Shown here piece after piece: positions 3,001-62,033 of a DNA stretch of 64,000 nucleotides; the first letter of the stretch is position 1; every line of letters begins with the position of its first letter. Source of the DNA: a virus. Where the stretch lies: IMG/VR virus record IMGVR_UViG_3300025276_000027, positions 13,789-77,788 of that record. One strand, 5' to 3'. Both the position numbers and the translations under genes were made by a program. The notes below the pieces were generated by a model, which was not told the DNA's origin, made no database searches, and saw only the letters and a list, made by a program, of their open reading frames with translations.

Positions 3001-6000
3001 TTTGTATTTGTGAAAGTAAATTTATTAGTAAATCCTTTCTCTTAGGATCAATGATTAATTGTTTTCTTTTACTTATAAAACCTTGGTTCCATCTATCCAA
3101 TTGAGAATTTACATCATCTCTTTCAGATGCAGAGTATACTATAGTATTACCAGCATTATCTCTTTCATTAAATAAATAATCTACCCTAAAGTTTTCAAAA
3201 CCTTTAAGTATAGATTGAAATAAAAGAGGAGATTGTATTTCAGTAGGTATACCATTATCTTTTAATAACTGTTCTTTGGTTATTCCAACATCATTTAAAA
3301 TTCTTTGTACTATAGCTCCAGTTTCTGAATTGTCTTGTCCAAAGAAATACATACTTTGAAGTATCTGTTTAGGGTCAGTTAAATTCTTTACAGCTTTTAA
3401 TAAACCATTATATGCTTCTACAAAATCAACAGCTATTATTAATGGCTCACCATTTGTTAATTCTACATTTCCAAAGTAATCTGTTGCTTCTACAGAAGTT
3501 GTTGCAATATAAGCTCTAAGTTGACTAGATAGAGATCTAAAACCACCAATCATTGATGCATCCTTTTCATACTCTGTTGTAGATCTTATACCCGTTGCGT
3601 CTTCAAATTCTTCTACTTCATATCGTTCATTATCTGATTTGTCACTTATTTGATTTATGTATGCTATACTTTGTTCTCTTATTGTGGCACTATAATTATC
3701 AAACGCTGATTGTATTTCATTTAACTTCACCTTCTGCAGATCAGTCTTATTTTCATTAATTGGATTATCAATACTGTATAACCATTCAAAGTCATCCAAT
3801 ACAGAATCCATTTGATTTTTAGGGTTATAAGATTCTGTTAATTTAGATACACGTTGTAAAAACATAGCTGATATATTTCTGACTAATGGATCTGCTATAT
3901 CACTTTCTAAATAAATAAATCCTAAATTTCCTTTCTCAGTTATTGAGTTATAAGGTATTAATGCATTTGCTTCTATTGTAGCTCCAACGTTTAATGCTGT
4001 AGTAAATTCATTATTTGCTATTTGTGCTCCTTTAAATTTACCACTATCAATATTTTCAAATAGAGTACGCAATTCATTTTTTGAATATGAATTAAATACA
4101 GACTGAATCCAATCTAGAATTCTAGTAAATAAAGATTTAACACTTGCATCAGTATTGGTATTCTTAGGGTTTATTTTAAACTTGTTAAATTCATCTGCTA
4201 GATATTCTTCATAGTATTGATTCTCTAGTTCTTGCCTAGTCATGTTACTATATGTATCTGCAGAGTTTTTAAATTTCTGTAGTTCTTTCTCAAAGCTTTT
4301 TCCTTCAGCTCTAAGTTTAGCTCTTACTTCTTTTCTAGCAATATTTCTATATCTTTTTATTTCTTCATCACTAAGTAGCATTCTAAATACACCGTGAAAA
4401 GCTTCATGATATTTATAAGGAGAAAGTGCACCAGTATAAATAGTTCCAGATACCTTTTGTCCACCAGCCACATGATTTAACCCTAATACAAAGGCACCAA
4501 CACGTACACCCCCTGCTTTTAAATTATTACCTAATGTAGTTATATCAGATATATTCATATAACCAGGTAAGTTGTTTGCAGCCCAATCAGTAAAGACATC
4601 TATATCCTCTACATCTGTCAAACTAAAATCAGAAGAAGACATAATTTTATTAGCTTCTTTTTCAATTGCTTTTCTTTGAGCTAATAATTTTTGATACTCT
4701 TCACTTGTTCTAAGAGTCTTACCTCTATCTTTAGGTGCTACACCCTCTAATAGCTGCGTCTTAACAGTTTCAAGTTGTTGTTTTATATCTTCAAGATTAT
4801 TGATTTGTTGTGTTGCTGGCTGCTTACCGTCTCTAAACATTTGCCAGCTAGATTTATTATTTCCAACTTGTGGAATACTATCATCTAATCTATCTTGAAT
4901 ATAGTCAACTATGATACCCATTTTGTCCATAGTAAAATCATAGTTCTTGTTTATTCTATTCAGAACCATTTGTCTACCTACTTCTTGTGTTATCTTTCCG
5001 TTCTTTATGCTTTTCTCTATTATCTTTATGTAATTCTCTATAGAGTTATCTTCTTCAGCTTTTGCTTCTTTACCATAATATATGGTACTACCATCCACGT
5101 CTTTATTTTTAGTCTTAGTTCCAAGAGGTTGTGTACTATTACCTCTACTTGCAGCACGTTTTGCTTCATATAACTTAGTAATAAGACTCTGGAATTTAGC
5201 TCTATCTTTATCAGCAACCTCTGATGTAACAGGATCTCTTAAAGCTTGAATCTGTTCCTCAATAGTAGATACAGCATCATCAAACTTTTGATTTGGATTA
5301 GATGTTGAAACTTGCTCACTAGTGTTAAGTCCTAAGAAATTTTGAGCTTTAACTCCTAATTGATTTAATACAGCGTCTATTTCCTTCTGAGAAGTAGCAA
5401 GACCATTCATTTGGTTAGGTACTCCTTCAAACTTACCAATTAAAAAGAATTTTACAGATCCATCTGGACTTGTTGCTTTTATTATCTCGGATCCATTTTC
5501 ATTGTTTTTAATTATTTGATTTACAATACCTCCTTTTATGTTCTTTTGTTCAAAAGTATAAATACCTTCTACCCTAGAAAAAGCTTCAACCCCACTAGTT
5601 TGTTGTAAACCTTCTCCACCTCTTTGAGATACCATTACATTAATAGTAGCAGCTCTCATATTATAAACTTCTACTTCTCTTGATGTTAAATTATCTACAC
5701 CCTCTTTAACAATTTTATTTGCTATATGGTTAATAAATTCAGAAGGGAGTGTAAGGAAATCTTTAGCTGCAAATTCAGCAAATGCGAGATCACTTAAGTC
5801 TAATAAACTAAACTCTGCTTCTTCTGAAGTAAAATTAGATTCATCTATTTCAGTATTTTCTACTACATCTTCTTTTATATTACCCTTATCTATTTCAGCT
5901 TGAATAGCAGAAGACTCACCTGTAGCTCTAGCAGAACTATTTAATACTACTTCAGGTCTTACATTAGTTGTTGTTAAATCAATAATTTCATTAGCAGATG

Positions 6001-9000: not shown

Positions 9001-11446
9001 TATCATTAGCTGCCATTCCTTCAAATAATGGCTCATTACTCAACTTAGTATAAATACCAAGTTGTCTTTCTGTTGCACGTTTAAACCCGTCTTCAGTAAA
9101 CATTTGAAGATATGTAATATGTTCAAAAGCTTTTTCTTTAATAGCTTCAAGAATATATGCTCTAGAACCCTTATCATATTGTGTTCTATCATAAGGATTT
9201 GTAAATTTATCTTTATTTTTCTCAAAACTAAGTTCAAATTTATCTAGGTTATTGATCATCTTCTGAAGTCTTTCCCTAGCTTTACCATTTTTAATATCAC
9301 TTTTTGGACCAGGAAACGCTTGTCCTAATTCTTCATCACTCATTTGCATAAAATCTGTAAGCTGAGTTCTAAAATAATTAGATGTTCCGTTTGAAAAAAT
9401 TGTATAAAGCTGTTGAAACTTTCCAAAATCTTTTTCATCTGTAAAACCAAATCTATCTTGAGCAAAAGCATTTTCCTTCATTGCTCCAGCAACTTGTTTT
9501 TGAATTTTAAAGTTTAATTCATTTAGGTCAAACAAAGAAGAAGGATTATCAACTGAACTATTCCATGCTTCATTATGTACTTTAACTAAATCCTTTACAT
9601 AATTCTTCTTTGTTTCTTGATATTCTTTAAATGCCTTTGGATCACTAATTCTATTATATAAAGCCGGCATTCCTTGAAATACTAGTTTTTGAGGTCCTTG
9701 TACAATTCCCCCCATTAAAAATCCAGATAGGAATGTCTCTACACCTTGTCCACTAAATTGAGAGCCCATACCAGCACGTATCATATCATTTTGTAATGCT
9801 ATTCCACCTGATAACGGATCTTCCATTACAGTAGTATAGTAACCTTTAGTACCTACAGCAATAGCTTCTTGTCCTATTTCTTGTAAACCCTCAGCTACAT
9901 TCGCTGCAAAGTATCTTGCTGTTGCTGATATAGCCATTCCGGTATTACCTTTAATTCCACCAGCTTTTACTTTAGTCCACCAACCTCTAATCCCAGGTCC
10001 CGCATCTTCAAATACATCTTTGATTTTACCAGTAACAGCATCTTTTACACCTTTACCTTTAAACAATCTTCCGTTTAAACCTTTTTTAAATGTATCATTA
10101 AAAACTCTACCTAATGATCTATTAAATCCACCCATTGCATTTCCTAATACAATCTGATTACTTAGAAAAATTAATGGAGCATTAGTCATTGTAGTATAAA
10201 AAGCACCTTCTCCTGCTTGAGATTGTATAAGTGCCATTTGTTCAGGTGTAACATTACCTGTTTTTTTCTTTTGTATATCTACCCCTTCTCTTACAAGTTC
10301 ATTGTAGACCATACCACCTTCAAGCTTACTTTCAGCTAATGCTAAATTTACTGCTCTAAAGTCTCTATAAAATCCACCAAATCCTGCTTTTGCTTTTGCT
10401 AAATTGTTTGCATTTTGTGTAGCATTTTTAGCAGTCTTAAAGTTTTTAAGTGCAGAATAAGTTTGTGGTGTTAATATATTACCAACTACTTTAGTACCAG
10501 ACTTTGCTGCTGCCCAGAAAGATTTAGCTGCATCATAATTTTTTAATTGATTAAGCAATGCTCTTGTGCTAGCCTGCATATTTTTTATATTAAAAAAGTT
10601 TTTTGCACCTTTTACAATTCTACCAGCATTTTGTGCTGTTCTTACTGCAGCAAGCCCACTTGTAGCACCACCAGAAAGATATGTTGCACCAGCAAGTATC
10701 AATTCTTCTACAGCAATAGATCCAATTATACCAAATGTATAACCACTATTTAAAAGTAAATTATTTGTAAAAGCTAATGCACCGCCTCTTGTTGAATTAC
10801 CAATAGCCATAGCATCTTCAAACTCCATTGCAGAATCAATATCTGGTGCAGAAAAATATGCATCATCATCAAACATGTCTCCTAAAGATCTATATACACT
10901 TGAAAATCCAGAACCTACTAAACTACTAAACTCACCACGCATTCTAGACATATCATCCCAAATTGTAGAGTTTGCATTATAGTATCCTTCCATATCAGCA
11001 TAGGGTGTAAAACCTAGCTGAGCAAAATCAGGATGCTCATAGTATCTCATAAAATTACTTTGTCTAATATTTGCAAAACGTTTATCTACAACGTCTGCAG
11101 CAGGTCCTTTAGACTCAGCCTTTAAAATTTTAGAAACAGTATTATATGTATCTTGAGGAGGATTTTGTTGAGCAACTGGATCAAATGTACCAGTAGCTAA
11201 AGTTGGTCTTGCTACACCTAAACTTGCCATAGCAGGTATACCATATCTATCTATAGCTGATTTATATGCACCAACATTAGCAATTGCACCAGGATCAGTA
11301 GCTAATACATCAGCTATCTGAGTTTCTGGCCCATCAAACATTTCTTCAATAGGTATAAAGTTAAATCCATCAGTTGGAATTACAGATTCTTGTCTTTGAT
11401 TACTATTTACAGCATTTGTCAAAGATGTATTCGCTTGATTCTCCAT
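2..11446 (-). CDS. Giant virion RNA polymerase polyprotein (N-terminal ejection/TM-like region + zincin HExxH domain + crAss-type RNAP); 3' end lies outside the window
   Basis: Missing from the ORF track because there is no stop inside the window. ATG at 11446 (MENQANTSLTNAV...) lies 8 nt after the upstream stop. Manual translation found no stop, and the frame is consistent at anchors: HEAFH (4394-4408), EEYLADEF (4187-4210), DFADAQMYIT (~1358-1387), FLKMSAFTL, SAVK and GVRIPSQDNHS (RIPSQ 71-85). These are the motifs of crAss-like vRNAPs that precede the catalytic DxDxD. Confidence 0.88.
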   Translation of the reverse strand, partial: MENQANTSLTNAVNSNQRQESVIPTDGFNFIPIEEMFDGPETQIADVLATDPGAIANVGAYKSAIDRYGIPAMASLGVARPTLATGTFDPVAQQNPPQDTYNTVSKILKAESKGPAADVVDKRFANIRQSNFMRYYEHPDFAQLGFTPYADMEGYYNANSTIWDDMSRMRGEFSSLVGSGFSSVYRSLGDMFDDDAYFSAPDIDSAMEFEDAMAIGNSTRGGALAFTNNLLLNSGYTFGIIGSIAVEELILAGATYLSGGATSGLAAVRTAQNAGRIVKGAKNFFNIKNMQASTRALLNQLKNYDAAKSFWAAAKSGTKVVGNILTPQTYSALKNFKTAKNATQNANNLAKAKAGFGGFYRDFRAVNLALAESKLEGGMVYNELVREGVDIQKKKTGNVTPEQMALIQSQAGEGAFYTTMTNAPLIFLSNQIVLGNAMGGFNRSLGRVFNDTFKKGLNGRLFKGKGVKDAVTGKIKDVFEDAGPGIRGWWTKVKAGGIKGNTGMAISATARYFAANVAEGLQEIGQEAIAVGTKGYYTTVMEDPLSGGIALQNDMIRAGMGSQFSGQGVETFLSGFLMGGIVQGPQKLVFQGMPALYNRISDPKAFKEYQETKKNYVKDLVKVHNEAWNSSVDNPSSLFDLNELNFKIQKQVAGAMKENAFAQDRFGFTDEKDFGKFQQLYTIFSNGTSNYFRTQLTDFMQMSDEELGQAFPGPKSDIKNGKARERLQKMINNLDKFELSFEKNKDKFTNPYDRTQYDKGSRAYILEAIKEKAFEHITYLQMFTEDGFKRATERQLGIYTKLSNEPLFEGMAANDITVLLDIDSINNEIGLLLQDIAVQDKETSEGKKAIEKATNKIKNLSAIEKILNDPKNLTKDGSFDRRKINKLTSAFEKYVQFMANSTNSFVDRSKMQDALKEIVDYKALNGRAKVYDKAIEYLNNPQRLSDIVDRQIEVNKNIYKNLSKIHKQQIEKYINIKEANVLMNKLFEAGYVGDPEQVKKFLISGNVNELKNFYDDQGDIDPNLDKVKYDQIQRLLETYRSMSEKTDESTDTTEEKGKDVEVKETKNNQDEILEDANIDVILPDANNSILLQKLLDRQYRKYSGTQTVLGETVKTFEEWRNTEGLNWQNSFNALKKLWISGKLPVMDAKGNPIFTELSDADIKAEAGFDQWLRSREVLENPLVRDILQAAGIPLNEMYYTEPVKSDPTLVTPKVANEDDEDNIDPANPPKPRVFQEGTIVDVLKITTFNSQGEVEAFFKLVDKNGNNVSPELLLQIGITRNAFNNSGTAIASMRKLDKRAPDSTPFPFDGVMLFQGQLVYDSDGKEYRVISTPKFVQGGNLRLVPNNFEGKPVTLQSGQFKNSYTTQEIKFDLLPSNVARVNITDINKVYPHANTDENGKRDYEGADDRLNIILDNLTQEEINTLELVINVNNEGGNNIGNYVIKGKEQNPYVTIVQSKYSIGLSIPNGKIKNRINKILKDNGVPITDNADGIFAYIPNGNIQIKDVTSLANMSREQALNSIFVSPELKATLDQKQTLELVRNNFALNALLLAYADSNPKSVIGINQLPFGLNFITQKGGRSIDNSNTRSLKDLRYEHADENGSYFIFDLKRKKGSRTIEYITTAEENVKLYNKIKSRLQKDLMWDNIITGSDRYVAIVQLPDGSYRPINLKARSLTKDQRGSLAVDLVERAQKTKKENLDKDGKVKDEAYNRDFNDTTVPDKVFISSNSDYNISLQVSPWGKLQLQLFDKNTSKQVGQTITIDIPAANSTSFVNQNSATGFIQSLIKDFNNDADIKATKVTLSNKNFRESFPTATSANEIIDLTTTNVRPEVVLNSSARATGESSAIQAEIDKGNIKEDVVENTEIDESNFTSEEAEFSLLDLSDLAFAEFAAKDFLTLPSEFINHIANKIVKEGVDNLTSREVEVYNMRAATINVMVSQRGGEGLQQTSGVEAFSRVEGIYTFEQKNIKGGIVNQIIKNNENGSEIIKATSPDGSVKFFLIGKFEGVPNQMNGLATSQKEIDAVLNQLGVKAQNFLGLNTSEQVSTSNPNQKFDDAVSTIEEQIQALRDPVTSEVADKDRAKFQSLITKLYEAKRAASRGNSTQPLGTKTKNKDVDGSTIYYGKEAKAEEDNSIENYIKIIEKSIKNGKITQEVGRQMVLNRINKNYDFTMDKMGIIVDYIQDRLDDSIPQVGNNKSSWQMFRDGKQPATQQINNLEDIKQQLETVKTQLLEGVAPKDRGKTLRTSEEYQKLLAQRKAIEKEANKIMSSSDFSLTDVEDIDVFTDWAANNLPGYMNISDITTLGNNLKAGGVRVGAFVLGLNHVAGGQKVSGTIYTGALSPYKYHEAFHGVFRMLLSDEEIKRYRNIARKEVRAKLRAEGKSFEKELQKFKNSADTYSNMTRQELENQYYEEYLADEFNKFKINPKNTNTDASVKSLFTRILDWIQSVFNSYSKNELRTLFENIDSGKFKGAQIANNEFTTALNVGATIEANALIPYNSITEKGNLGFIYLESDIADPLVRNISAMFLQRVSKLTESYNPKNQMDSVLDDFEWLYSIDNPINENKTDLQKVKLNEIQSAFDNYSATIREQSIAYINQISDKSDNERYEVEEFEDATGIRSTTEYEKDASMIGGFRSLSSQLRAYIATTSVEATDYFGNVELTNGEPLIIAVDFVEAYNGLLKAVKNLTDPKQILQSMYFFGQDNSETGAIVQRILNDVGITKEQLLKDNGIPTEIQSPLLFQSILKGFENFRVDYLFNERDNAGNTIVYSASERDDVNSQLDRWNQGFISKRKQLIIDPKRKDLLINLLSQIQKDILPTDKAITSAKLKKDSKKYSQELFELSGIKISPLFLQYSMLYNRTNLKEDQSVFLKLNKNESAALTHDLDGSAYKESSIALMNQLIQSNEDIFSVGKDGMDSRLKNMSIANAPFDETIGASVFKNPNGDLIYAHQLPTYHLKKIAQLNNPEALVDLLESDPYLANNYLLNSSAFKQLSLESRLQVIRVAGNKIGDLISTEEELNDGLQGIKQTSTYGDFTPQEFALNLINNYGALLNSKSYKVSRVESLDREGNKIISALAPILIRVMEASNTGDMAALPVIKTVEMVNGEAVLTEEAVDIYIDKIRTEFARINREANDITKTQEDILGYTDGRALTFFNTKTLMSVEQQTFLINAAIKAGKAGNIITLDDALAGTVTQQTSEVTDEVSGMTALRNNLVDNLESRFQVFEQLIDELKIEDQISNQVKNGPVIAAGVSRGALVQSASLLNLNNNFRHNLKQIFFNDAINSYSINEILLGDQAVSLKDSVDQIKRAKMQNGAYYSAYSAITAPEHGVIHPVDDISLVTLTEPQDSGIDFADAQMYITTKAFRYMWFGFGKLSAAQAEFINRIEAGQTITSDSVFGNEATPEGYAKMQALLNSKKLVYGDGSTFLKMSAFTLTPQYTSEWNDDIKSWVALPGKETLHNLRLKLEAIEKEKETIAIAAPLSAVKMKKQRVNLLEELDNTDPFTNGVTTLDARFMGLQQLNPSNKLEQIDPTQIKQILTSEQNDKQFVPALNMSVKEIRTEYNKAISQRVTLKFNDKTNLIFSFENAMDELSISQASGKITPKLAAFLQFALSGLKASQSSSQILEFFSMTEGIPNYNLNNQIIVRKFEQLFLSYFSKGVFSERTPGLGLTLVSDFGNKVYRRVFEIKDGVPIRSEIIRRAAWQGTENDLFNIDSLTQENIGPEGVVVLDRLRHGIMEYDSNGEPTGQRYTEMMMPAHHKSVMDLIENTPSATMPEAISKMFGVRIPSQDNHSAMNIKWVDFMPVFYGSSAM

Positions 11447-14759: not shown

Positions 14760-17700
14760 TTACATACCCATCTTTCCACTATAAAATGGAAATGATTTTG
14801 GTAACTTTTTTATTTCTTTTCCTTTTTTAAGCTGTACATTTGATCCAGGATATCCAGGAATACCACGTTGTTGCATATCAGCTTGACCCTTTGTAGTTCC
14901 AATAGCAGGTATACTACTATTACCTAAAGATAAATACCTATCTAAAAAAGCAGCATCTATCTTTTGATCTGCCGGTAAATTCTTTCTTAGCTTAGTATAT
15001 GCATTTAAAAAAGCTTCTTGTTGATCTACCTGATTTGATTTGTATAATTGCTGACCATTTTCAGTAAACTCTACATCACCATCCTCTTGTGGGTTAATAT
15101 TATAATAAGGATATAATGTGTTTAAATTATTAGTAGTTGATGCATTAGTTATCATTGCATTAAAGAGTTCATTGTTTTTAGCAATTTTTTCATTGTCAAA
15201 ATTTGTTTTATTTTGCAATGCTAACACTGTATCATCATATAAACCTTTGTCAATAGCCTTATTTCTCATATCTGTTTGTGCTTTCATTTGAGCATCCATA
15301 GATGCAGCACGGTTCATGAATTGAAGGTTTGTTCTGTTTGTTGTCTCCTGTGCTTGTGTTATAGCATTTAAACTTTTTCCTTGAACATTATTTCTTGCTA
15401 TTGCTTGAGGACCACCATAAGCGCCTAATGCATTTACCATAGTGTTTTGTGCTCCCATGATTGCATTAACTTTACCAGTATAATCATCTAATACATAATC
15501 AATTTTCTGTTCATCAAGTTTAGGTGACCAAGGTAAATACAAATCATCTTGTATAGCTGCTAAAGCCATTAAGTTATTTTGATCTTGTCTCCATACTTCT
15601 TTTACAGGACCAGGTGTATTTTCTATCTCTGTAGTTGTAATCTTTTCTGGTTCTTTAGGTAAATCAATAAAGCCTTCTTGTTCTGCTACAAAGTCTACAT
15701 CAAATCCAGGAGCATTAAATACTTTTGTTCCCGCTTTTCCATCAGCCTTAGATGCAGTTTCCCCACTTCCAAAATAAGATCTATACGGTGCACCTACTTT
15801 TTTATAGAATTTCTTTCTTTCTTCTTCATATAAATTTTGAAACTTTAACCATTGAGGGTCTTTCTTTCCTTTATTATAATCAAAGCCTTCTATTTTTGCA
15901 GCTATCTTACCATTCCTTCTCATCCAATCTTCCTTGGCTGCATCTGATGCATATGCGTCTGAACCATACCAACTATCCTGATTACCTGTAGAATATTGTT
16001 TTACAGGTATTTTACCATCAGCGTACATCCCATAATCAAAATAACCTATATCTGATGAATTAATTACATCACCAGCACCCCTTTCATCATCACTATATAT
16101 TGGATCTCCTATTTCAGATGAACCAATTATATCTATTGATGTAGTATCTTCATTACCTTTTTTACCTTCAAAGTTAGAAGATGGTCCTTTATAATATCTT
16201 AATTTACCATCATCAGTTACATTAAATGTAAACCCTTGAGATTGTTTTTGTTTAATAAGGTTATAGGTATCACTTCCTACTGGAAAATATGACAATGGAT
16301 CACCACTATTATTAGATGATGGTTTTTGTTTTATTTCTTCTATGTTATTATTAACTTCAGTTATTACTTCTTCAGACTGAGTATTATTAACGCTACTATA
16401 AGTTTCATTAAATACTTCTTCTGTAATGCTTAAATCTCCAGTAGTATTCCTATTTTTATCATCAAACACATCATAATCTTCTATATTAACTAAAGCTTTA
16501 CCATACATTTTAATCTCATCATCAGATAAACCTTCTATAAATTCTGAACTTACTTCACCATCAAAATTTCTATGCATGTTACCTCTAATCATTCTATCAA
16601 CATATGCAGCTCTATCAACAGGTTGCCCATTTATTTGATAGTTTGTATTACCGGTTAGTACTTGTGAACCATCTGATAAATTCATAACAGTATCAGATGC
16701 ATTATTATTTTCTCCTACTGTTTCTTCTTCTGTTTCTAAACCTTCTTGTATTTGAGGTCTAACCAGTTTACCTTCACTATCAAAAGTAACTTGTTCTATT
16801 TCAACATATTCACCATCTTTAAACTGATAACCTTGACCTGTGTTTTTATTTAGATAATACTTACCTTCTTCAGCTAGTCTAGTTGGAGGTATAAAATATG
16901 TACCAGGTTCAGTGTTAAGAACTCTGAAACGTGCATCTTCTTCATCTACTGTTTCATATACTATTTCTTCACCTGCTTGTGCTCTCTTTAAAAAGTCTGA
17001 CATTTCATTACCAAACCTAGCCATAGGCATTATATCATTATTTGCTTGAGCAAGTTGCATTTGATTAGCAGAATCTATTGGTGGTGCTTGCATATTTTGT
17101 GGAGGCATAACTTCCTGTTGTTCAGATTGAGATATCATCTGCTGTAACATCCTTAACTGATCTTGTTCTTCTTGTGGTAATTTATCTATTGCATTTTGTT
17201 GAGCTTGCTGCATAGATATTTGTTCAACACTAGCTGTAAACTCTAATGGATTTAAACCTTGAGATACTAAAAAAGGATGTGATGCTAAAGGAACACCATC
17301 CTCAAAATTCTTTTTTGCTTCTTGCATAAAAGATAATTTAGAAAGATCCTCCATGTTTTTCTTTAACATTAATTCAGCACTTCTAGAAGAAATGTTATCT
17401 GAAAATTGTGAATTTAGTTCACCATAAAAATCATTTAATCCAAACTTTTTAGAAATTTTAGCTGGTGTCTTTTTAGATCCACCCATATCAAACTCAGCCA
17501 TCTCATTTTTAGTAAATTTTAATTTAGGTGTATCAGAATAAATAAAAGACTGTTCAGGTAAAAACATAGGTACACCACCTTGTGAGTGTCTTGGACCTGT
17601 AATGTTATAAAGACCAAAGTCTCCATTGTTATTTAAATCAGATAAAACTGTTTCTCCACCTTCAGCTTCTATATTAGCCTCATCTCTTGGAACACTAGAT

Positions 17701-17900
17701 AAACTATGTCTAACAGATTCATCATTTGTATTATTAAACATTGTTTGTCCATAATATTCTTGTGGGGTTGTTACCAAACCATAATCAGCTTGATCACCAG
17801 ATCTTAAACTGCCACCATCTTGCATTACTTGATCTTCAACAACTTTGCCGTCAACAAGTTTAAATCCTTTTGGTAGTTTATTTATTTTAATCTTTGCCAT
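14760..17900 (-). CDS. Head cargo protein (1046 aa) with crAss-type EAEGGE...GPRHSQGGV...IYSD domain
   Basis: NIEAEGGETV / GPRHSQGGVPM / FIYSD motif set as seen in crAss-like virion proteins. Q-rich linkers, helical C-terminal region and xxGG motifs. Confidence 0.6.
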   Translation of the reverse strand: MAKIKINKLPKGFKLVDGKVVEDQVMQDGGSLRSGDQADYGLVTTPQEYYGQTMFNNTNDESVRHSLSSVPRDEANIEAEGGETVLSDLNNNGDFGLYNITGPRHSQGGVPMFLPEQSFIYSDTPKLKFTKNEMAEFDMGGSKKTPAKISKKFGLNDFYGELNSQFSDNISSRSAELMLKKNMEDLSKLSFMQEAKKNFEDGVPLASHPFLVSQGLNPLEFTASVEQISMQQAQQNAIDKLPQEEQDQLRMLQQMISQSEQQEVMPPQNMQAPPIDSANQMQLAQANNDIMPMARFGNEMSDFLKRAQAGEEIVYETVDEEDARFRVLNTEPGTYFIPPTRLAEEGKYYLNKNTGQGYQFKDGEYVEIEQVTFDSEGKLVRPQIQEGLETEEETVGENNNASDTVMNLSDGSQVLTGNTNYQINGQPVDRAAYVDRMIRGNMHRNFDGEVSSEFIEGLSDDEIKMYGKALVNIEDYDVFDDKNRNTTGDLSITEEVFNETYSSVNNTQSEEVITEVNNNIEEIKQKPSSNNSGDPLSYFPVGSDTYNLIKQKQSQGFTFNVTDDGKLRYYKGPSSNFEGKKGNEDTTSIDIIGSSEIGDPIYSDDERGAGDVINSSDIGYFDYGMYADGKIPVKQYSTGNQDSWYGSDAYASDAAKEDWMRRNGKIAAKIEGFDYNKGKKDPQWLKFQNLYEEERKKFYKKVGAPYRSYFGSGETASKADGKAGTKVFNAPGFDVDFVAEQEGFIDLPKEPEKITTTEIENTPGPVKEVWRQDQNNLMALAAIQDDLYLPWSPKLDEQKIDYVLDDYTGKVNAIMGAQNTMVNALGAYGGPQAIARNNVQGKSLNAITQAQETTNRTNLQFMNRAASMDAQMKAQTDMRNKAIDKGLYDDTVLALQNKTNFDNEKIAKNNELFNAMITNASTTNNLNTLYPYYNINPQEDGDVEFTENGQQLYKSNQVDQQEAFLNAYTKLRKNLPADQKIDAAFLDRYLSLGNSSIPAIGTTKGQADMQQRGIPGYPGSNVQLKKGKEIKKLPKSFPFYSGKMGM

Positions 17901-17902
17901 AA

Positions 17903-20900
17903 CTATAACATTTCTATATCAGCTCCCGCTGCAATTAATTTAGCTAACATTTTAGGATCTACATTTACTGTCTCTCCTCCTTTTTTTAACCCTTTCAATT
18001 TCATTGCTTGTCTAATACCAAATTTTGTTATTCCACTAGCATCATCATAAAAAGGTTGTTCATAAACATAATCTCTTACTTCTTCTTTATTTATACCTGA
18101 TTCTTCTAAATATTTTTTAATATCTCTTTTCTTAACGTTACTAAAGAAGTCTATACCTTCACTAATACTGCCAATATTCTGTGCTTCATTATAAATATTA
18201 ATAATTTCTTCCTCACTTCCAGGAGATAAGTTAAGTAATTTTTGCATCATAGGATTAGCCATCATACCACTACCTAATACAGTTGCTAAATTAGAACTAC
18301 CAGGTATTCCTCCCTGAGCTTTAGATAGTTCTCTTTGTATAACTTTATTTCTATTAGCTAAGTAAGCAGCCTCACCTCTTTCACCACCATATTCATTCTT
18401 TGGAAGCATCTTTAACTTAGATAAATTATCTTTTAAAGACATTTCAAGCGGCTCAATACCCATTGGTTCAAGAGTACTTATAGATTCAGGTGGTATAAAA
18501 AATTTACCAGAATCTAATTCAGATTGTAAACCAGCTAATTTATCATTTAAATTATTTGTTGAGCCAACATATCTTGTTACTCTTAGTCCTGAATTAGGAT
18601 CACTAGTATCTTGAATACCCTTTATTGCATTTAAAGATCTATAGTTAACACCACCATCTACTCTACCACCACTATTTTCCATCATTATAGGAGAACCACT
18701 TTCATCATAATCTCCAGTAAATATCATTGTGTGAGCATTTCCCTCTCCACCAGAAGTACTATAATTAGATACAATTCTATCACCCGGTTGTAAATCTGAA
18801 TATCCAGCATCCATCAATTGCATTTGTAATCCACCTCTATTATTTTCAATCATACCATTTAATTGACTGTTACCAGAAATAATTGGAATTGGTTTGCCAT
18901 CAGCAGTTGTTGCACCTGCTGATCTCATTATACCACAACCATAACTTGTACACCCATAACCAGCAGTTGTACCACTTTTTAACCAATTTCTAGTTACTGA
19001 AGGTACGGTATCTAACCCAGATACCTTGTCTCCATACTCGTCCACACTTACATCAAATATAGAACGTTTAATAGTACTATCATCTCCTAGTATCTCTGTT
19101 AGTTGCTTTTGAATTTCTTCATCATTTTCTCCTTCTTTACTAGTTATAAGTCCACGGTATATTTTATCAATGTTTGATTGATAGCTTAAAAGTCTTTCTT
19201 GTTCTGTAGTAAGCTGACCTTGTGTTGCTGCAATCTCTGCTTCAATCATTGCTTTAGTTCTACGATTATTTAGAGGCGTTTCACCTTTCACTTGATATTC
19301 TTCTAAATCACCTGTAAAAAGTTTTAATGGATTAAATGGATTACCACCCATTTGCATTCTTTTCTGAAAATTGTCTAACTCAAAGTTTTCAGACTGTGAT
19401 GGTAATTGCATTAGTTGTGAATTATTAAATAATCTAGTAACTAACATTTTATCATATGAAGAATCTTTCTTAAAGTTTGGTAATTGAAAATCTACTGATT
19501 GTTCTGCTAAAGATGTTAAGAATTCATACTGTGGAGTCATTGGTACAAACTCTATTTCATTAGCTCCTGTAATAGCATCTAATTGTGCTTTAGTTGGCAT
19601 ACCTGGTATCTGTTGTCCAGGAACACCCCCACGTTGCATGTTTTGTAATATGTTTGCTTGTGCTTCTGGGGGCAATGCTTTAAATCCAGCATTATTTGTA
19701 CCACCACCATACTTTGATAGTTGAGTATATCCAGTTACTTTATCTGCTTCAGGATATAGACCGCTGTTAATATCAGGGCCTTTACCTCTTTTAAATAAAG
19801 GATCGGTTGAAGTAGCATATGTGTTATCCGCATTTAAGTTGTTTAAAAAATTAATTGCTCTATCATCATCAATCTCATCTTCTAAATAATCATTAACGTT
19901 ACTTGCTGCTCTTACTGCAAAAGAACTACCTCTTTTTGCAGCTTTTGCAAACGCTGTATCTGGGAATCTAGATATTCCTCCTAGTATACCACCTGAATCA
20001 ATATCTATACTTGGAAAGTTTATATTACCAAATAATGAATCAGCACTCTCTTGATCTTCATCTTCACCTGTTTCCAAAACACTAAAAGTATTTACATATG
20101 CTTCATACTCTTGTGGTGCATTAGCACCAGTTCTCCTAACAGTATCTTGCATAACCCACTCTTTAAAAGTTAATGGTTGCCCACCATTTTGAGCCATGGG
20201 TATTGAACTAAAACCAGGAGTGTTAATTATAGCATCATATGTACTTTGTGCTGATGTACCTAATTTACTAAGATTTTCCTTAAGCCAATCTTTGCCTTTA
20301 TTTAGTTTGCTATTTATATCATTCTGATTAATCTGCACCTTATCTTTAAGGTTAGGTAAATTACCTCCGTTTGGATTTTCTATATTATATTGTGTTAAAT
20401 AATCATTTACAGCCTTTACATTTTCTTCTGAATCATCTACATTTATATTATAAACTGAATTAGCATATTTATTTGCTTGATTAGCTGCAGCATCTGCTGC
20501 TAAAGTATCAGGAGCACTTTGTATACCAGTAAATAATTCTCCTGCTAAACCAACTGCTTCACCAAAAGACCATCTTTTTCCACTATGAAACATATTAGGT
20601 GAAACATAAAAAGGATTTGTAACATCACCATTATCTACTTTTACCTCTTCTTTATTTATTACATCTCCCTTATTATTTTTTATAACAGTATTACCTTTGT
20701 TAGCAAATTGATTAGCTAAATCAAGTATTTCTTGGCCTGTTTCTGCTTTATCAGTATAGCCAGCTTCTTCAAGTCTAAGTTGTGTTTCTATATCCTTAGC
20801 TCTTATCTTTCTTTTACCCTTATACATAAAGCGTGGTTCAAACGCACCACCTGCTTTAAATTGAAGTTCTTCAGATTCAGGAGGAAATAATGGTTTATCT

Positions 20901-21826
20901 TTTTTTGATGGATTTATTAAAGGTAAATTTTTATAAACTTGTTTTAAAGAATCCACCTCAGATTGTCTAGGATATATATTGTCACTAAACATATTATTAT
21001 CTTTGTCTTCCCATTCACGCTTAAGGTTTTGTGCATTCCTCCAATTTTGATATTGTGTTGGAAATTGTTGTTCTTTACTTGCGTTATTTTGATTTATTAT
21101 ATTTTGTTCAGCATCAGTATTACCAAATTGATTTACTGCAGGTGAAGAACCACCTTGTTGTTTAAATCTTGGATCTAAAGTGTACTTTCTATTAGGGGCA
21201 TTATAAGAACCTTCTCTTTGTCTTACTCCTTCTGTATAGCCTGTTCCTCCACCTTCTTGTTTTTTAAACTTAGCAGCATTCTTTGCAAAATTAGCCATCT
21301 TAACTATAGATGGGGGGTATCTATCTTTATTAGACATAACCTTCCTAGCTGCTTCTTGAACGCTCATACCACGTGCCTTAGCCCATGCTGTAAACTTACC
21401 TTTATTTTCAGGTTTAATCTCTATCCCAGATTTAGCCATTTCAACAGGATCTATATTTATATCTAATCCTTCTTGTCCTTCTTGTATGTCTTGTTGTCTT
21501 GCTAACTGTTGAGGGTCTTGATTTATTTGTTGAGGTGTTGGATCAGCAGGTTGTTGTTGTTGTTGAATATTTTGAAATAAAAGTTCTAGATCTTTCTCTT
21601 GATAACCTATTGCCATAAGTGCTTGTACAATAGTATTTTGATCTACTTCTTGTTCAATTAACCCCATTACAACTTCTTCAGGTTTACCTCCTTGGTCAAT
21701 GGATTCTTTAAAAAACATGCTAATTTGTTGAATAGCAGGATCAACCTTTGGTTGTTGTTGCATACCAGGTTGTTGAGGAATCATTTGTCCACCTTGCTGT
21801 TTTACACTTTTTTTGTTTAAATCCAT
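17903..21826 (-). CDS. Modular head cargo protein (1307 aa) with NlpC/P60-like Cys-His domain and 11 xxGG motifs
   Basis: GCTSYGCGIM...LQPGDRIV...AHTMIFTG...MMENSGG (about 18560-18990). IKPENKGKFT...ANFAKNA basic module. Q-rich N-terminus. Confidence 0.65.
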   Translation of the reverse strand: MDLNKKSVKQQGGQMIPQQPGMQQQPKVDPAIQQISMFFKESIDQGGKPEEVVMGLIEQEVDQNTIVQALMAIGYQEKDLELLFQNIQQQQQPADPTPQQINQDPQQLARQQDIQEGQEGLDINIDPVEMAKSGIEIKPENKGKFTAWAKARGMSVQEAARKVMSNKDRYPPSIVKMANFAKNAAKFKKQEGGGTGYTEGVRQREGSYNAPNRKYTLDPRFKQQGGSSPAVNQFGNTDAEQNIINQNNASKEQQFPTQYQNWRNAQNLKREWEDKDNNMFSDNIYPRQSEVDSLKQVYKNLPLINPSKKDKPLFPPESEELQFKAGGAFEPRFMYKGKRKIRAKDIETQLRLEEAGYTDKAETGQEILDLANQFANKGNTVIKNNKGDVINKEEVKVDNGDVTNPFYVSPNMFHSGKRWSFGEAVGLAGELFTGIQSAPDTLAADAAANQANKYANSVYNINVDDSEENVKAVNDYLTQYNIENPNGGNLPNLKDKVQINQNDINSKLNKGKDWLKENLSKLGTSAQSTYDAIINTPGFSSIPMAQNGGQPLTFKEWVMQDTVRRTGANAPQEYEAYVNTFSVLETGEDEDQESADSLFGNINFPSIDIDSGGILGGISRFPDTAFAKAAKRGSSFAVRAASNVNDYLEDEIDDDRAINFLNNLNADNTYATSTDPLFKRGKGPDINSGLYPEADKVTGYTQLSKYGGGTNNAGFKALPPEAQANILQNMQRGGVPGQQIPGMPTKAQLDAITGANEIEFVPMTPQYEFLTSLAEQSVDFQLPNFKKDSSYDKMLVTRLFNNSQLMQLPSQSENFELDNFQKRMQMGGNPFNPLKLFTGDLEEYQVKGETPLNNRRTKAMIEAEIAATQGQLTTEQERLLSYQSNIDKIYRGLITSKEGENDEEIQKQLTEILGDDSTIKRSIFDVSVDEYGDKVSGLDTVPSVTRNWLKSGTTAGYGCTSYGCGIMRSAGATTADGKPIPIISGNSQLNGMIENNRGGLQMQLMDAGYSDLQPGDRIVSNYSTSGGEGNAHTMIFTGDYDESGSPIMMENSGGRVDGGVNYRSLNAIKGIQDTSDPNSGLRVTRYVGSTNNLNDKLAGLQSELDSGKFFIPPESISTLEPMGIEPLEMSLKDNLSKLKMLPKNEYGGERGEAAYLANRNKVIQRELSKAQGGIPGSSNLATVLGSGMMANPMMQKLLNLSPGSEEEIINIYNEAQNIGSISEGIDFFSNVKKRDIKKYLEESGINKEEVRDYVYEQPFYDDASGITKFGIRQAMKLKGLKKGGETVNVDPKMLAKLIAAGADIEML

Positions 21827-21845
21827 TTCACTAATATTATATTAT

Positions 21846-21856
21846 TAATATACAAA
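21846..21856 (-). promoter_or_regulatory. TTTGTATATTA putative late promoter
   Basis: Exact copy, 19 nt upstream of the 1307-aa gene start. Confidence 0.6.
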
Positions 21857-21887
21857 TTCTCTAGGAGATTTGCTAATCTTTAAAGGT

Positions 21888-23855
21888 TTAAGAGTTTGAA
21901 ATTATATAAGATGCAATAAAATTAGTAACACCAATTCCACGTTCTTTTGCATCTTTATAATACATTCTATTTAGTTTATCATATACTTTTTTAGCATACT
22001 GACTTTCATCTTCTCCATTTATATAATTCATGTATGTTTTACTTACATCTTCAGTTGATCCTCCATCTTGTTGAATTTGTATAAATCCATTACGTTGAAT
22101 TTGTGGTGAAAATTCTTCGGGAGGATCTGGTGCAAATACTTTACCATCTGCAAATACTCCTGATTTATATTTTTCTACTAATTTATTAATTGTATCTTTT
22201 TCATTTAAATTTTGATTCCCAACTAATGATCCTACATAATTATTATATATATCTTGTAGTGACTCTTTGCCTTTTATTGACCAAGGGCGTTCATCTTTTC
22301 CAATAGTTACTGCTTCATGACCTATTCCAGCTAAATTTGAACCAATAAACCCTGCTGCATTATCAACACCAAAAAAATCTAATACACCACCTACATAAGG
22401 AATATCTCTTACTTTTTGTTGTAGAACTTTAGATGTTTTTGCAGAAGATGATGAATGTCTTAATGGATCCATTCCTTCATTTATTAAATCTTTTGTTTCT
22501 TGATATATAGGATTTGCCACATTCCAATCTGCTTGTTGTTTTCTAAGTGCAACAACTCTTTTATCCATTTCAAAGTCCCTTCCCCTTTTCAAACCATTAT
22601 CATAATCTTTATCTCTATATTCTTGATAAATAGTAGCAATCTGGTTTTCTATATTTTCATCAAAATCATGAAATGTTTTCATTTGATCTTCTGAGAGTAT
22701 TTGGCCAATATTATTTATTTTACCCATACTATAACCTAACCACTCATTTACATCTTTTTCTGCATCTCTTAATGAATAATCATATGAACTACCTTTTTGT
22801 CCATCTAAGTTTATACTATCTTGAGCTTTAGGTAATGTTTTAACTTTACCGTTCTTAGTTCTAGCATATCTATTTGATTCTGTTTCCATGCTAGGAATAA
22901 GTGAACCTGAATATGATTTACCTTTCCATTTCCAACTTACTGAGCCACCTCCTTTTTTCTTTTGAATATATTTTCCTGAATCTTTATCTTTTTCTACATA
23001 TATTCTATCATATATTTCAAAAGGTTTAGTTAAACCTAATTTCTCACCAAAGTTTATATTACCACCTAAACCTCCGGCTTGGTCAAACTTATCATAATAA
23101 GATATATACATACCATTTTCATCTTCCCCAAATCCTGTAAAATAATTACCAATAGCATTTAATTGGTGATCATCAATATCATTTACTTCTTTATAGCCTG
23201 TAACTTTATAATTATTTTTATCTAGTTGTTTTTCATTATCATTTACATCCAGTATTAAATCAGGTTTAGTTTCATTGGTATAAAAATTTCCATTACTAAC
23301 TCTATTATAATTATCTATAACTTCTTGAACAAGTTGTTGATTTTTATTTAGTGATATATATTTAGCATCTGGATCTTTTGCTTTTGTAGGTTTAGTATTA
23401 CTAACTTGAAGAATATTATCTTCTAATGGTCTACCAGAATAGTATCTATATAAGTCAGCCAATCTACTGTTATGATGTTGATGATTTGCAAAATCTCCTG
23501 CAGCTAAAGCACTTAAAAAAGGAATACCTTTAAAATCTCTAAATTCTCCATTACCTCCCTGTGCCATAGGTATTTCAAGTACTTGATCTCCTGGAAAACT
23601 ATAATTTGTACCAGGTGTCATTACTTCTTTATTGCCTAAATTATCTATACCAAGTAAAGGTCCTTTTTTTAATGGGCTACCATCATTTTCACTCATGCTA
23701 ATATTACCTGACTCAATAAGATTAACTGAATTGTTTTTATCAGGACTATCATATCTATATCCCTCAACAGAAGCAATACCTGTAACATATGTTATATCTT
23801 CATTAGGTCCTCCGGGTAATCCACGGCTTTTTATGTAATTAAAATCTTCTCTCAT
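21888..23855 (-). CDS. Modular virion/cargo protein (655 aa) with C-terminal DUF6973-like (DxxRH...HE...DxxNN) domain
   Basis: N-terminal GYRYDSPD...GIDNLG...YSFPG..V.EIPM domain typical of crAss-like proteins. DPLRH / GHE / DIYNNYVG motifs. Start overlaps the upstream stop (TAATG at 23853-23857). Confidence 0.6.
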   Translation of the reverse strand: MREDFNYIKSRGLPGGPNEDITYVTGIASVEGYRYDSPDKNNSVNLIESGNISMSENDGSPLKKGPLLGIDNLGNKEVMTPGTNYSFPGDQVLEIPMAQGGNGEFRDFKGIPFLSALAAGDFANHQHHNSRLADLYRYYSGRPLEDNILQVSNTKPTKAKDPDAKYISLNKNQQLVQEVIDNYNRVSNGNFYTNETKPDLILDVNDNEKQLDKNNYKVTGYKEVNDIDDHQLNAIGNYFTGFGEDENGMYISYYDKFDQAGGLGGNINFGEKLGLTKPFEIYDRIYVEKDKDSGKYIQKKKGGGSVSWKWKGKSYSGSLIPSMETESNRYARTKNGKVKTLPKAQDSINLDGQKGSSYDYSLRDAEKDVNEWLGYSMGKINNIGQILSEDQMKTFHDFDENIENQIATIYQEYRDKDYDNGLKRGRDFEMDKRVVALRKQQADWNVANPIYQETKDLINEGMDPLRHSSSSAKTSKVLQQKVRDIPYVGGVLDFFGVDNAAGFIGSNLAGIGHEAVTIGKDERPWSIKGKESLQDIYNNYVGSLVGNQNLNEKDTINKLVEKYKSGVFADGKVFAPDPPEEFSPQIQRNGFIQIQQDGGSTEDVSKTYMNYINGEDESQYAKKVYDKLNRMYYKDAKERGIGVTNFIASYIISNS

Positions 23856-61112: not shown

Positions 61113-62033
61113 TTATAAACTTAATATCATATCTACTAAATCAGGATGAGGATAACAATCTGATTTATCTTTCCTAACGTTTGTATGTGTTAATAATCCT
61201 TTTACTTTACCTAAATGTGCATCAAGATTAAATCCAAATCCTTTGATAGGTCCATGTTTTTGTATAAGTTGTTTTAAACCTAACCTAATATCAATTTGAT
61301 CTCTTTCTCCTACATATTTTATCCATTTTTCAGTTGCTTTAATTTGAGCATCTGAATAACTATGCCATTTATTATATCCATTAAATGATTCTTCTAATGT
61401 AATCACTTGATTTTCTTGACACAATGAATTAACATATGTTTTGTTGCTATGAGTTAGATATCCCATAGAACAAATTTCTAAACCTACTGAATGACGGTTC
61501 ATATAACCTGAACCAGTTTTTCCTAAGTGCCATCCTTGTGCACCTGTTGGAAAAGCTTGAACCATTGTACCATCATGCTCATTGTTTCCATTCCTATGGT
61601 CAATCCCCCCTAATACAAATTCAGTAGCTATACGCCCACGTGAATCTCTACCCCACATATCTACACAAGCATATGGATTAGCATGTCCTGCTGTATGGTG
61701 TAAAATTACATATTCATTACTAATTGGACCTTCAAGATATTCTCCTTTTGGTAAAAAATGTTTATGTATTATTTGTTCATAATTTGTTTTGTAGTATTGA
61801 CCTTGTAAGTCTGTATCTTCATCAATTTCTAATGATTTTGTTTCTTGTAAGTTCATTAACAAAACCCACATATCATTATCAACTAATCCTGTAACTTGTA
61901 AATTATGTGTGAGTTGAAATCTCTTTACATATTTTTCAGTATTAGGGCCAAAAATTCCATCAGATTTTAACCCTAATTTATTTTGAAGTGTTGCTACATC
62001 ATTACCTGTAGATCCTTTCTTTAAAAGTCTCAT
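61113..62033 (-). CDS. Endolysin: peptidoglycan-binding domain + N-acetylmuramoyl-L-alanine amidase (Amidase_2)
   Basis: LKKGSTGNDV..LQ...DGIFGPNT...FQ...GL binding domain. LHHTAG, WHLG, SVGLEI, THTNV..KSDC Zn-amidase motifs. Confidence 0.88.
   Translation of the reverse strand: MRLLKKGSTGNDVATLQNKLGLKSDGIFGPNTEKYVKRFQLTHNLQVTGLVDNDMWVLLMNLQETKSLEIDEDTDLQGQYYKTNYEQIIHKHFLPKGEYLEGPISNEYVILHHTAGHANPYACVDMWGRDSRGRIATEFVLGGIDHRNGNNEHDGTMVQAFPTGAQGWHLGKTGSGYMNRHSVGLEICSMGYLTHSNKTYVNSLCQENQVITLEESFNGYNKWHSYSDAQIKATEKWIKYVGERDQIDIRLGLKQLIQKHGPIKGFGFNLDAHLGKVKGLLTHTNVRKDKSDCYPHPDLVDMILSL

Follow-up and report, generated by a model that had tools for sequence, protein, structure and literature searches.

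Gly-Gly seams at the module boundaries of a cargo-type protein in a divergent crassvirus

Introduction

The DNA analysed here, referred to below as the window, is a stretch of 64 kb out of the 77.8-kb IMG/VR virus record IMGVR_UViG_3300025276_000027, whose completeness is estimated at 68%. The source virus is a divergent crassvirus of the marine type, with Crass_capsid, ring, portal and terminase genes present. Its minus strand encodes the Crass_capsid major capsid protein, CrAss_Ring_1, Ring_2, the portal protein and the large terminase. On this strand, Ring 2 and Ring 1 are followed by a protein of 2117 amino acids (aa) and then by proteins of 655, 1307, 1046, 1081, 4775 and 1890 aa. The 2117-aa protein is a virion structural protein according to PHROGs and occupies the muzzle position; the 655-, 1307- and 1046-aa genes sit directly downstream of it, inside the crassvirus structural block. 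The subject of this work is a short motif ending in two glycines (GG), here called a seam, that occurs in these three cargo-type proteins. In the family of the 1307-aa protein, modules are gained, lost and swapped at the seams, and the evidence leans towards uncut structural joints over protease cutting sites.

In Bacteroides phage crAss001, the genes after the muzzle gp44 encode the cargo proteins C1 (gp45) and C2 (gp46), with RNA-polymerase-associated giant proteins next in line (Bayfield et al. 2023, PMC10172136). The gene order downstream of the 2117-aa protein mirrors this succession of muzzle, cargo and giant proteins. In nearly all related loci, a distance of 3 bases separates the stop codon of the 1307-aa gene from the start codon of the 1046-aa gene, which makes them a fixed gene pair. 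Pfam gave no match at E ≤ 0.01 for five giant proteins, including those of 655, 1307 and 1046 aa, and the sole PHROGs match on the five was phrog_20603, on a single module (KGKFT). Nothing significant was found in PDB sequence searches with the 655-, 1307- and 1046-aa proteins, and the whole 1307-aa protein had no tblastn match among 50,697 phage records.

Gly-Gly motifs and their enrichment

A sequence-only reading of the locus had listed 16 xxxGG motifs, and all of them lie where it placed them on the minus strand, the coordinate being the last base of the second glycine codon. The 1307-aa protein carries KQQGG (21788), KQEGG (21248), KQQGG (21149), FKAGG (20846), AQNGG (20180), SKYGG (19703), MQRGG (19625), MQMGG (19343), NEYGG (18383), KAQGG (18308) and LKKGG (17975). 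MAQGG (23553), KKKGG (22947) and QQDGG (22059) belong to the 655-aa protein, and MQDGG (17811) and FDMGG (17478) to the 1046-aa protein. The 11 motifs of the 1307-aa protein are a selection from its 19 GG runs, but not an arbitrary one. Most of them lie at coverage steps or breakpoints of homologues, or at predicted helix ends or disorder-to-order steps. The GG of the N-terminal leader (residues 12-13) is at neither a breakpoint nor a fold boundary, although 41 of 48 distinct leaders have it. Among the eight unlisted runs, those at residues 46, 998, 1026, 1053 and 1058 fall inside folded domains and those at 487, 612 and 616 in low-confidence regions.

Chance expectation was estimated from 2000 shuffles of each protein. 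The 1307-aa protein has 19 GG runs against 9.7 expected (p = 0.0005), six QxGG against 0.8 and five [MK]QxGG against 0.1, and neither of the last two counts was reached in any shuffle. In this genome there is no such enrichment in the 655-aa protein (7 GG runs against 5.6 expected, p = 0.32) or the 1046-aa protein (5 against 6.0, p = 0.76), and none of the remaining proteins of the 77.8-kb record is GG-enriched by shuffling, with the exception of the muzzle, weakly (p = 0.014). Within this genome, enrichment of the motif is seen in the 1307-aa protein and not in its two neighbours. The motif was defined after the data had been seen, and the decisive test is therefore provided by relatives. Calculated by family, the enrichment of seam-type motifs is 5.0-fold for the 1307-aa protein, 3.6-fold for the 655-aa protein, 2.2-fold for the 1046-aa protein, 1.6-fold for the muzzle and 0.9-fold for the 1081-aa protein.

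Module exchange among relatives

A search of 5.8 billion proteins yielded 250 homologues, mostly from marine metagenomes; about 120 homologues were analysed together with 80 related crassvirus loci from IMG/VR. Every homologue carries three to six QxGG motifs against about 0.6 expected, and the same excess is present in about 60 non-redundant homologues. The 1307-aa protein comprises at least 10 module types, each of which is found in other arrangements among homologues. Order and copy number vary, and the modules are joined always at GG. Whole modules are gained, lost, duplicated (one to three copies) or swapped exactly at GG. For example, the copy number is one to three for NILQNMQ-GGG-VPGQQIPGMPTK and one or two for GG-E(A)AYLANRDRVI, GG-EFKPHFMYKG is likewise recurrent, and the C-terminus is always GG-ETVNVDxxMLAKLIAAGADIEML. 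The segments from one GG to the next fall into tight length classes of 11-14 aa (leader), 22-23, 20-26, 29-32, 39-40 and 23 aa (C-terminus).

In an all-against-all BLAST comparison, 47.8% of 18,336 internal ends of high-scoring segment pairs (HSPs) lay within 3 aa of the end of a GG run, as compared with 7% of random positions; these ends are not independent counts, the sequences being related. When the 1307-aa protein was compared with the 80 IMG/VR loci, the fraction of breakpoints at GG was 0.51 (expected, 0.10). The muzzle, used as a control, showed no link (0.10 against 0.07 expected). Counted as distinct clusters, 7 of 35 breakpoints of the 1307-aa protein are at GG against 3.5 expected, a modest excess which means that the heavily used breakpoints are those at GG. 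The expectation that module boundaries and indels of homologues coincide with the motif is therefore confirmed for the 1307-aa family by breakpoints, copy-number changes and swaps alike.

The glycine pair itself is strongly conserved. For four module types, GG directly precedes the module in 94-100% of distinct contexts, including all 41 contexts of the AFEPRFMYKGKRK module, and the C-terminal module likewise follows GG in 78 of 81 contexts. Behind the KGKFT module, 76% retain GG, and most of the others have a single glycine, often as [E/D/N]-G. The positions three to five before GG are biased (K/M, Q/K, Q/E/Y) and glutamate is preferred after the seam, although the residue three before GG and the residue after it are highly variable. 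Among relatives, the GG codons and hexanucleotides vary with ordinary codon usage, which indicates selection on the protein rather than the DNA and rules out a DNA-level recombination signal at the seams. Both termini of the 1307-aa family are strictly conserved in the 80 loci, and no open reading frame (ORF) ends at a seam in any of them.

The modules are listed in Table 1 together with the other features of the window. The TNNAGFKALPPEAQANILQNMQR mini-module is tandemly duplicated in some relatives (L080, L081). The densest seam strings seen here occur in two proteins of 1075 and 1216 aa (L080:1830-5057 and L081:9638-13288), the latter in a complete 105.8-kb crassvirus record. Their first 400 residues consist of 10-40-residue units ending in [M/Y]-x-[M/D]-GG(G), such as ANMAMGG, SNMSMGG, EYADGGG and MYAMGGG.

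Table 1. Coordinates of genes, modules and motifs in the window
Feature	Position	Strand	Remarks
655-aa protein	21888..23855	-	First gene after muzzle; genomic position of crAss001 C1
1307-aa cargo-type protein	17903..21826	-	Second gene after muzzle; main seam carrier
1046-aa protein	14760..17900	-	Third gene after muzzle
N-terminal 13-residue leader MDLNKKSVKQQ-GG	21788..21826	-	Predicted disordered; GG within first 20 residues in 41/48 distinct leaders
57-aa KGKFT module, aa 135-194	21245..21424	-	Between seams MAKSG and KKQEGGG; matches phrog_20603
32-aa mini-module TGYTEGVRQREGSYNAPNRKYTLDPRFKQQ-GG, aa 195-226	21149..21244	-	About 25 homologues; length tightly kept
~40-aa module AFEPRFMYKGKRK..., aa 328-367	20726..20845	-	Predicted beta-hairpin and helix, pLDDT 75-85
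One-helix mini-module TNNAGFKALPPEAQANILQNMQR-GG, aa 710-734	19625..19699	-	GG(G) on both sides
94-aa module VPGQQIPGMPTK...KRMQM-GG, aa 735-828	19343..19624	-	1-3 tandem copies in homologues, each ending MxMGG
Papain-like CHAP/NlpC-P60-type domain, aa ~921-1106	18509..19066	-	GYGCTSYGC ... HTMIF; four intradomain GGs
One-helix mini-module ERGEAAYLANRNKVIQRELSKAQ-GG, aa 1149-1173	18308..18382	-	Predicted helix 1149-1171 fills the GG-to-GG gap; repeated in some homologues
C-terminal 23-aa module ETVNVDPKMLAKLIAAGADIEML	17906..17974	-	In 118/120 homologues; GG before it in 78/81 distinct contexts
4775-aa giant ORF (aa 961-4775)	2-11446	minus-strand block	HEAFH at aa 2347
HEAFH zincin-type motif	4394..4408	-	aa 2347 of 4775-aa protein; without Pfam support
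406-aa protein	32478-33698		Matches DNA repair exonuclease family phrog_704, E = 8e-38; amid the tail/ring gene block
1998-aa protein	37096-43092		13.4% glycine; BppL_N (lower baseplate protein N-terminal) match at aa 1407-1430; GG count at chance
306-aa endolysin-type protein	61113-62033		PG_binding_1 and Amidase_2

The 655- and 1046-aa proteins

The neighbours of the 1307-aa protein show the pattern in part. For the 655-aa protein, the fraction of breakpoints at GG against the 80 loci was 0.48 versus 0.07, and two sites only account for it. These are MAQGG (aa 97-101), with 31 of 64 internal HSP ends, and QQDGG (aa 595-599), with 22 HSP starts. KKKGG has almost no breakpoint support; its downstream module SVSWxWKGKSYS also follows GG in a homologue of the 1307-aa family. 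A GG near the N-terminus, GLPGG-P (aa 12-17), is conserved and followed by proline. Both the 655-aa and the 1307-aa protein contain the tag IPMAQ(N)GG, and in the 655-aa family LPKAQxGG is found repeatedly.

In the 1046-aa protein, none of 36 breakpoints lies at GG. MQDGG, which ends a conserved 30-residue leader (MAKIKINKLPKGF...MQDGG), and FDMGG keep their positions within an N-terminal region that is itself conserved, and EAEGGE, HSQGGV and FDMGG are conserved intradomain GGs. The only clear seam is a degenerate one, KRAQAG-EE near aa 306-310, which is the main breakpoint of the family. The family always begins with MAKIKINKLPxGF, and the block ANIEAEGGETVL...GPRHSxGGVPMFLPEQ (aa 70-125) is kept in all homologues sampled. 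This block may be a portal-docking domain; between the N-terminus and the portal-binding region of C1, the match covers only 14 residues (E = 0.046).

The placement of the motifs at boundaries between compositionally distinct blocks thus holds for the 1307-aa protein and for MAQGG and QQDGG, but hardly for KKKGG and not for the 1046-aa protein. Of the proposed degenerate copies, RAQAG (residue 310 of the 1046-aa protein) is the main family breakpoint just described and MAKSG is the N-terminal seam of the KGKFT module. Overall, the observation of seams holds in the 1307-aa family and to some extent in the 655-aa family, but for the most part it does not in the 1046-aa protein.

Predicted structure and the papain-like domain

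AlphaFold2 models built with family alignments had mean predicted local distance difference test (pLDDT) values of 50 and 61. Confident islands of the 1307-aa protein cover residues 30-95, 141-185 (KGKFT), 331-360, 551-580 and 854-1114, and the seams at 192, 326 and 548 lie at steps from disorder to a confident module. Predicted helices stop one or two residues before GG and resume one to five residues after it. Helix 720-731 is followed by GG 733-4, helix 818-825 by GG 827-8 and then a helix from 832, and helix 1149-1171 lies exactly between GG 1147-8 and GG 1172-3. The same local pattern is found at IDQ-GG-KPEE (residues 46-47), where a helix-turn-helix is predicted within a confident domain. 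Combined with the residue preferences, these helix ends are consistent with a helix C-cap followed by a glycine pair and the start of the next helix.

The papain-like domain lies in the island 854-1114, with pLDDT 85-96 over most of its length. Its top VIA-align matches were PlyGRCS (Z 8.4; 130 residues aligned, root-mean-square deviation 3.2), the LysGH15 CHAP domain (Z 8.3), Lys2972 (Z 8.2) and MepS (Z 7.5), and most non-helical matches in the top 50 were CHAP or NlpC/P60 hydrolases; Z values near 8 are moderate. The predicted fold is of the papain-like alpha+beta kind of these hydrolases. The C39 peptidase domain of ComA scored lower (Z 6.1) than the CHAP endolysins (Z 8.1-8.4). Foldseek against the PDB gave no match at E ≤ 0.001, and Pfam NLPC_P60 none at E ≤ 1, which leaves VIA-align as the basis of the CHAP assignment. 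Of 119 homologues, 24 have the domain, and GYGCTSYGC and HTMIF are conserved among these; about 80% are without the domain and still keep the seams. On the basis of the model, the domain is probably a cell-wall hydrolase used at entry. The sequence-only reading had named this NlpC/P60 domain among the possible partners of the motif; its resemblance to cell-wall hydrolases and its absence from most seam-keeping homologues do not support a role as seam protease. Because of this absence, transglutaminase-type cross-linking of the K/Q-rich seam by the domain is unlikely as well.

Relation to cargo protein C1 of gut crassviruses

The KGKFT module alone finds gut crassviruses by tblastn among the phage records, and copies with 66-80% identity are embedded in otherwise dissimilar proteins of other crassviruses. 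Five other records that carry it were tested, and all five have a Crass_capsid gene; the idea of a seam module outside crass-like phages was dropped on this ground. In another crassvirus lineage, represented by six IMG/VR contigs of 5-15 kb (L074-L079; e.g. L075:2895-3782), the module is fenced by KGG and KKKGG in a small protein of 151-367 aa. This protein is encoded in the L075 record about 1.3 kb upstream of the Crass_capsid gene (G005:5106-6461), a proximity that places it in the head-gene block and not after the muzzle.

From seam to seam, the KGKFT module is 58% identical to aa 84-142 of C1 of the cultured gut crassvirus Rudgehvirus jaberico, a protein with 13 GG runs against 4.1 expected. 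It is 38% identical to residues 364-423 of crAss001 gp45, where it is bounded by GG on both sides; gp45 has 20 GG runs against 11.6 expected (p = 0.001). The shared module and the GG-rich C1 proteins of gut phages indicate that the seam belongs to several crassvirus lineages, both marine and gut.

The structure of crAss001 C1 (PDB 7QOG, 7QOI, 7QOJ, 7QOL, 8CKB; crAss_CARG1, PF25725) gives these similarities a physical setting. Helix 214-245 of gp45 is bound to the tail rings and the domain 425-552, for which there is clear density, to the portal (PMC10172136). Both resolved pieces fall between GG seams. The portal-bound segment begins with AFGGW and spans GG 427-8, 434-5 and 447-8, the first of which is the seam after the homologous KGKFT module. 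It was proposed that C1 is stored in an extended form from capsid to tail and ejected first (PMC10172136). Like the 655-aa gene, the C1 gene lies just after the muzzle, and its product is GG-rich and shares the GG-bounded KGKFT module with the 1307-aa protein. Beyond this one module there is no overall sequence similarity to the window proteins, and the window genome spreads its modules over two or three genes. PF25725 had no match at E ≤ 10 in a six-frame search of the virus record itself. By analogy with C1 and C2, the cargo proteins of the window are probably packaged in the virion and ejected before the DNA. In the literature searched, there was no mention of a GG pattern or of module exchange in crAss001 C1.

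Other genes of the window

Eight GG runs of the 4775-aa protein lie in Gly/Ala-rich hydrophobic stretches of its first 600 residues, and the 3815 residues inside the window have no Pfam match at E ≤ 0.01. Its HEAFH motif and the CHAP-like domain are the only protease-like signatures seen in the record. The 1998-aa protein is probably a tail fibre or receptor-binding protein. The 306-aa protein, with its PG_binding_1 and Amidase_2 domains, represents a separate lysis enzyme beside the CHAP-like cargo module.

Joints, cutting sites or recognition handles

The explanation preferred here, which is tentative but could well be right, is that the seams serve as structural joints which stay uncut and connect the autonomous modules of proteins that are ejected. 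A seam would consist of a helix-end cap ([K/M]-[Q/K]-x) and the glycine pair, usually followed by an acidic or small helix-start residue. It would link small autonomously folding or single-helix modules, from 11 to about 300 residues in length, into one long polypeptide. Such a protein would be packed in the virion and ejected ahead of the DNA, as are C1 and C2 of crAss001. The glycine pair would allow the chain to turn or to stay extended between modules, while single modules dock to separate internal surfaces (portal, tail rings, muzzle) and the chain is threaded through the narrow portal and tail channel. Each module would bring its own seam, and whole modules could therefore be inserted, deleted, duplicated or exchanged without disturbing their neighbours.

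Several observations weigh against uncut joints. About half of the 1307-aa protein has pLDDT below 50, and it is gene order and one shared module that point to packaging of the window proteins. Both glycines are kept in 94-100% of contexts, with biased positions three to five before them, a degree of constraint that a simple flexible linker would not require. Several units of 20-40 residues are fenced at either end by GG, an arrangement also known from processed viral core peptides, and a zincin-type HExxH motif (HEAFH) is present in the co-located 4775-aa protein. Twelve copies of gp45 are found at two sites about 420 Å from each other, one in the tail and one on the portal (PMC10172136), and cutting explains these pieces as easily as threading does. 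Finally, when published crAss001 matrix-assisted laser desorption/ionization (MALDI) peptide lists were subjected to our own peptide-mass matching, gp45 (90.8 kDa) was above chance in none of gel bands 1-10 (~58 to >300 kDa), while the portal was; the bands are faint and keratin-rich.

Alternatively, some or all seams might be cut after Gly-Gly, either in the head at maturation or in the host after ejection. This alternative, which was also the first suggestion of the sequence-only reading, is unlikely on present evidence, although it deserves to be taken seriously. The enzyme could come from the phage (either the zincin in its giant protein or one that was not recognised) or from the host, and it would release peptides, the CHAP-like lysin and other modules. 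Apart from the conservation and upstream bias of the glycine pair, the fenced units, the HEAFH motif and, weakly, the missing gp45 at its intact size, it is favoured by the fact that each of the three proteins starts with a short leader that ends in GG. The leaders of the 1307-aa protein (13 residues) and the 1046-aa protein (30 residues) are conserved and, by eye, without the LSxxELxxIxGG consensus of the double-glycine leaders (about 15-30 residues) in C39 peptidase systems. A precedent is given by polyvalent proteins, for which self-processing by zincin-like peptidases was proposed (PMC5512222).

The balance of the evidence is nevertheless against cutting. The gp45 model runs through three GGs, including the homologous seam (PMC10172136). 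Proline directly after GG is not depleted (0.8-fold and 1.9-fold) and is tolerated at seam-type sites, as in VKQD-GG-PSH and MAY-GG-PKGE. The motif in IDQ-GG-KPEE lies inside a predicted folded helical domain, where cleavage would be senseless. No gene fission at seams was found in the 80 loci, and about 80% of homologues are without the CHAP-like domain. Pfam Peptidase_C48 had no match at E ≤ 1 in the 68% complete record itself, the adenain (C5) and African swine fever virus (ASFV) families not having been searched separately, and none at E ≤ 0.1 in five relatives that are 99-100% complete. C39 had no match in the record or in these relatives, and Peptidase_S78 none in the relatives, the T4-type prohead protease family not having been searched. 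In the peptide-mass matching, the large RNA polymerase cargo proteins of crAss001 appear intact (gp47/gp50 and gp49 at full size), and the portal, gp26, gp22, gp25 and gp23 are assigned to gel bands. The gp45 peptides quoted in the structural study all have tryptic ends and are consequently silent on GG cuts (PMC10172136).

In its most specific form, this alternative would make the seams the processing sites of a virion polyprotein system so far found only in Crassvirales, with an unrecognised protease that is possibly the zincin of the giant RNA-polymerase protein. This is rather improbable. If it were true, cutting after packaging or ejection would release 20-60-residue peptides, the CHAP-like lysin and docking domains, and it would explain why pieces of one crAss001 cargo protein are found in both tail and capsid.

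A further possibility is that the seam peptide ([K/M]-Q-x-G-G or [L/I]P-x-A-Q-x-GG) is a recognition handle bound by the scaffold, portal, rings or muzzle, repeated copies of which would load the protein into the procapsid or set the order of ejection. Sequence specificity beyond GG, the occurrence of IPMAQ(N)GG in both the 655- and 1307-aa proteins, the recurrence of LPKAQxGG, the conserved terminal peptides and the restriction of the enrichment to the first three genes after the muzzle would all agree with such a role. In crAss001 gp45, however, the parts seen bound are modules that lie between seams and not the seam peptides (PMC10172136), the sequence varies greatly both three residues before GG and directly after it, and the seams are predicted to be disordered or at helix ends, with no partner identified. 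This makes a handle doubtful, and the docking-tag idea of the sequence-only reading, which comes closer than cleavage, survives only in the sense that modules between seams dock in crAss001, and not the GG peptide. Chance, with motifs picked by eye from a Gly- and Gln-rich, partly disordered protein, is very improbable and for the 1307-aa family is refuted: the GG counts of the 655- and 1046-aa proteins, the two named 1046-aa motifs that bound no module and the modest cluster excess speak for it, but the unreached motif counts, the excess in non-redundant homologues, the conservation of GG in its contexts, the negative muzzle control and the heavy use of breakpoints at GG speak against it.

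Comparison with other systems

The adenovirus protease cuts (M/L/I)xGG-X, and pS273R of ASFV cuts core polyproteins at GG-X; both belong to clan CE. MQRGG and MQMGG of the window fit (M/L/I)xGG, small peptides are fenced by GG and the proteins would be inside the particle, as gene order and the KGKFT module suggest. The window phage differs in that it has no match to a Ulp1/C48-type protease in its own record or in the five relatives (adenain and ASFV families not searched separately), tolerates proline after GG and shows no sign of cutting. In T4, internal proteins carry capsid-targeting leaders that are removed by the gp21 prohead protease, and head processing of a similar kind occurs in phages of the phiKZ and SPN3US type. 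Short, conserved N-terminal leaders on proteins that are packed in the head and injected, probably so in the window phage, are a common trait. The processing sites in those phages, however, are (L/I)xE or (S/A/G)xE and not GG, and a dedicated prohead protease is encoded, whereas the window lineage has no S78 match among the five relatives (T4-type not searched).

The Tal proteins of lactococcal phages Tuc2009 and TP901-1 reportedly cut themselves at a glycine-rich stretch. The T5 tape measure protein pb2 is cut after R1127, between a hydrophobic stretch and a muralytic domain (PMC10038345). In both cases the cut falls at a defined joint of a virion protein with a cell-wall hydrolase module and is made before infection or in its course, but it is a single cut and not a repeated seam, and the T5 site follows arginine.

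Polyvalent proteins (Iyer et al. 2017) combine many unrelated domains (2-15) in one polypeptide that is delivered with the DNA of phages or conjugative elements; they include a cell-wall-attacking domain, and a zincin-like peptidase was proposed as their processor (PMC5512222). The 1307-aa protein falls within this range of 2-15 domains. Its modules, however, are mostly tiny (11-60 aa) and non-enzymatic, with the CHAP/NlpC-P60-like domain as the only enzyme-like one, and the zincin-type motif is in the neighbouring 4775-aa gene and not in the seam proteins. No junction motif is given for polyvalent proteins, the words "glycine" and "linker" being absent from that paper (PMC5512222). A Gly-Gly seam motif in crassvirus cargo proteins was not found described in the literature searched.

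Significance

Few phages of the gut are as abundant as crassviruses, which are also common in the sea, and what is at stake is how their large load of internal proteins is packed, ordered and ejected. A conserved joint provides a rule by which cargo proteins that cannot be annotated may be split into units for structure prediction and functional study, and it explains the trading of modules between lineages. Whether the joints are cut or uncut bears directly on the crAss001 model of one protein spanning capsid to tail. If they are cut, they would represent a phage polyprotein system that is, to our knowledge, new. If they are uncut, they would reveal a design principle for proteins that are threaded through a narrow channel.

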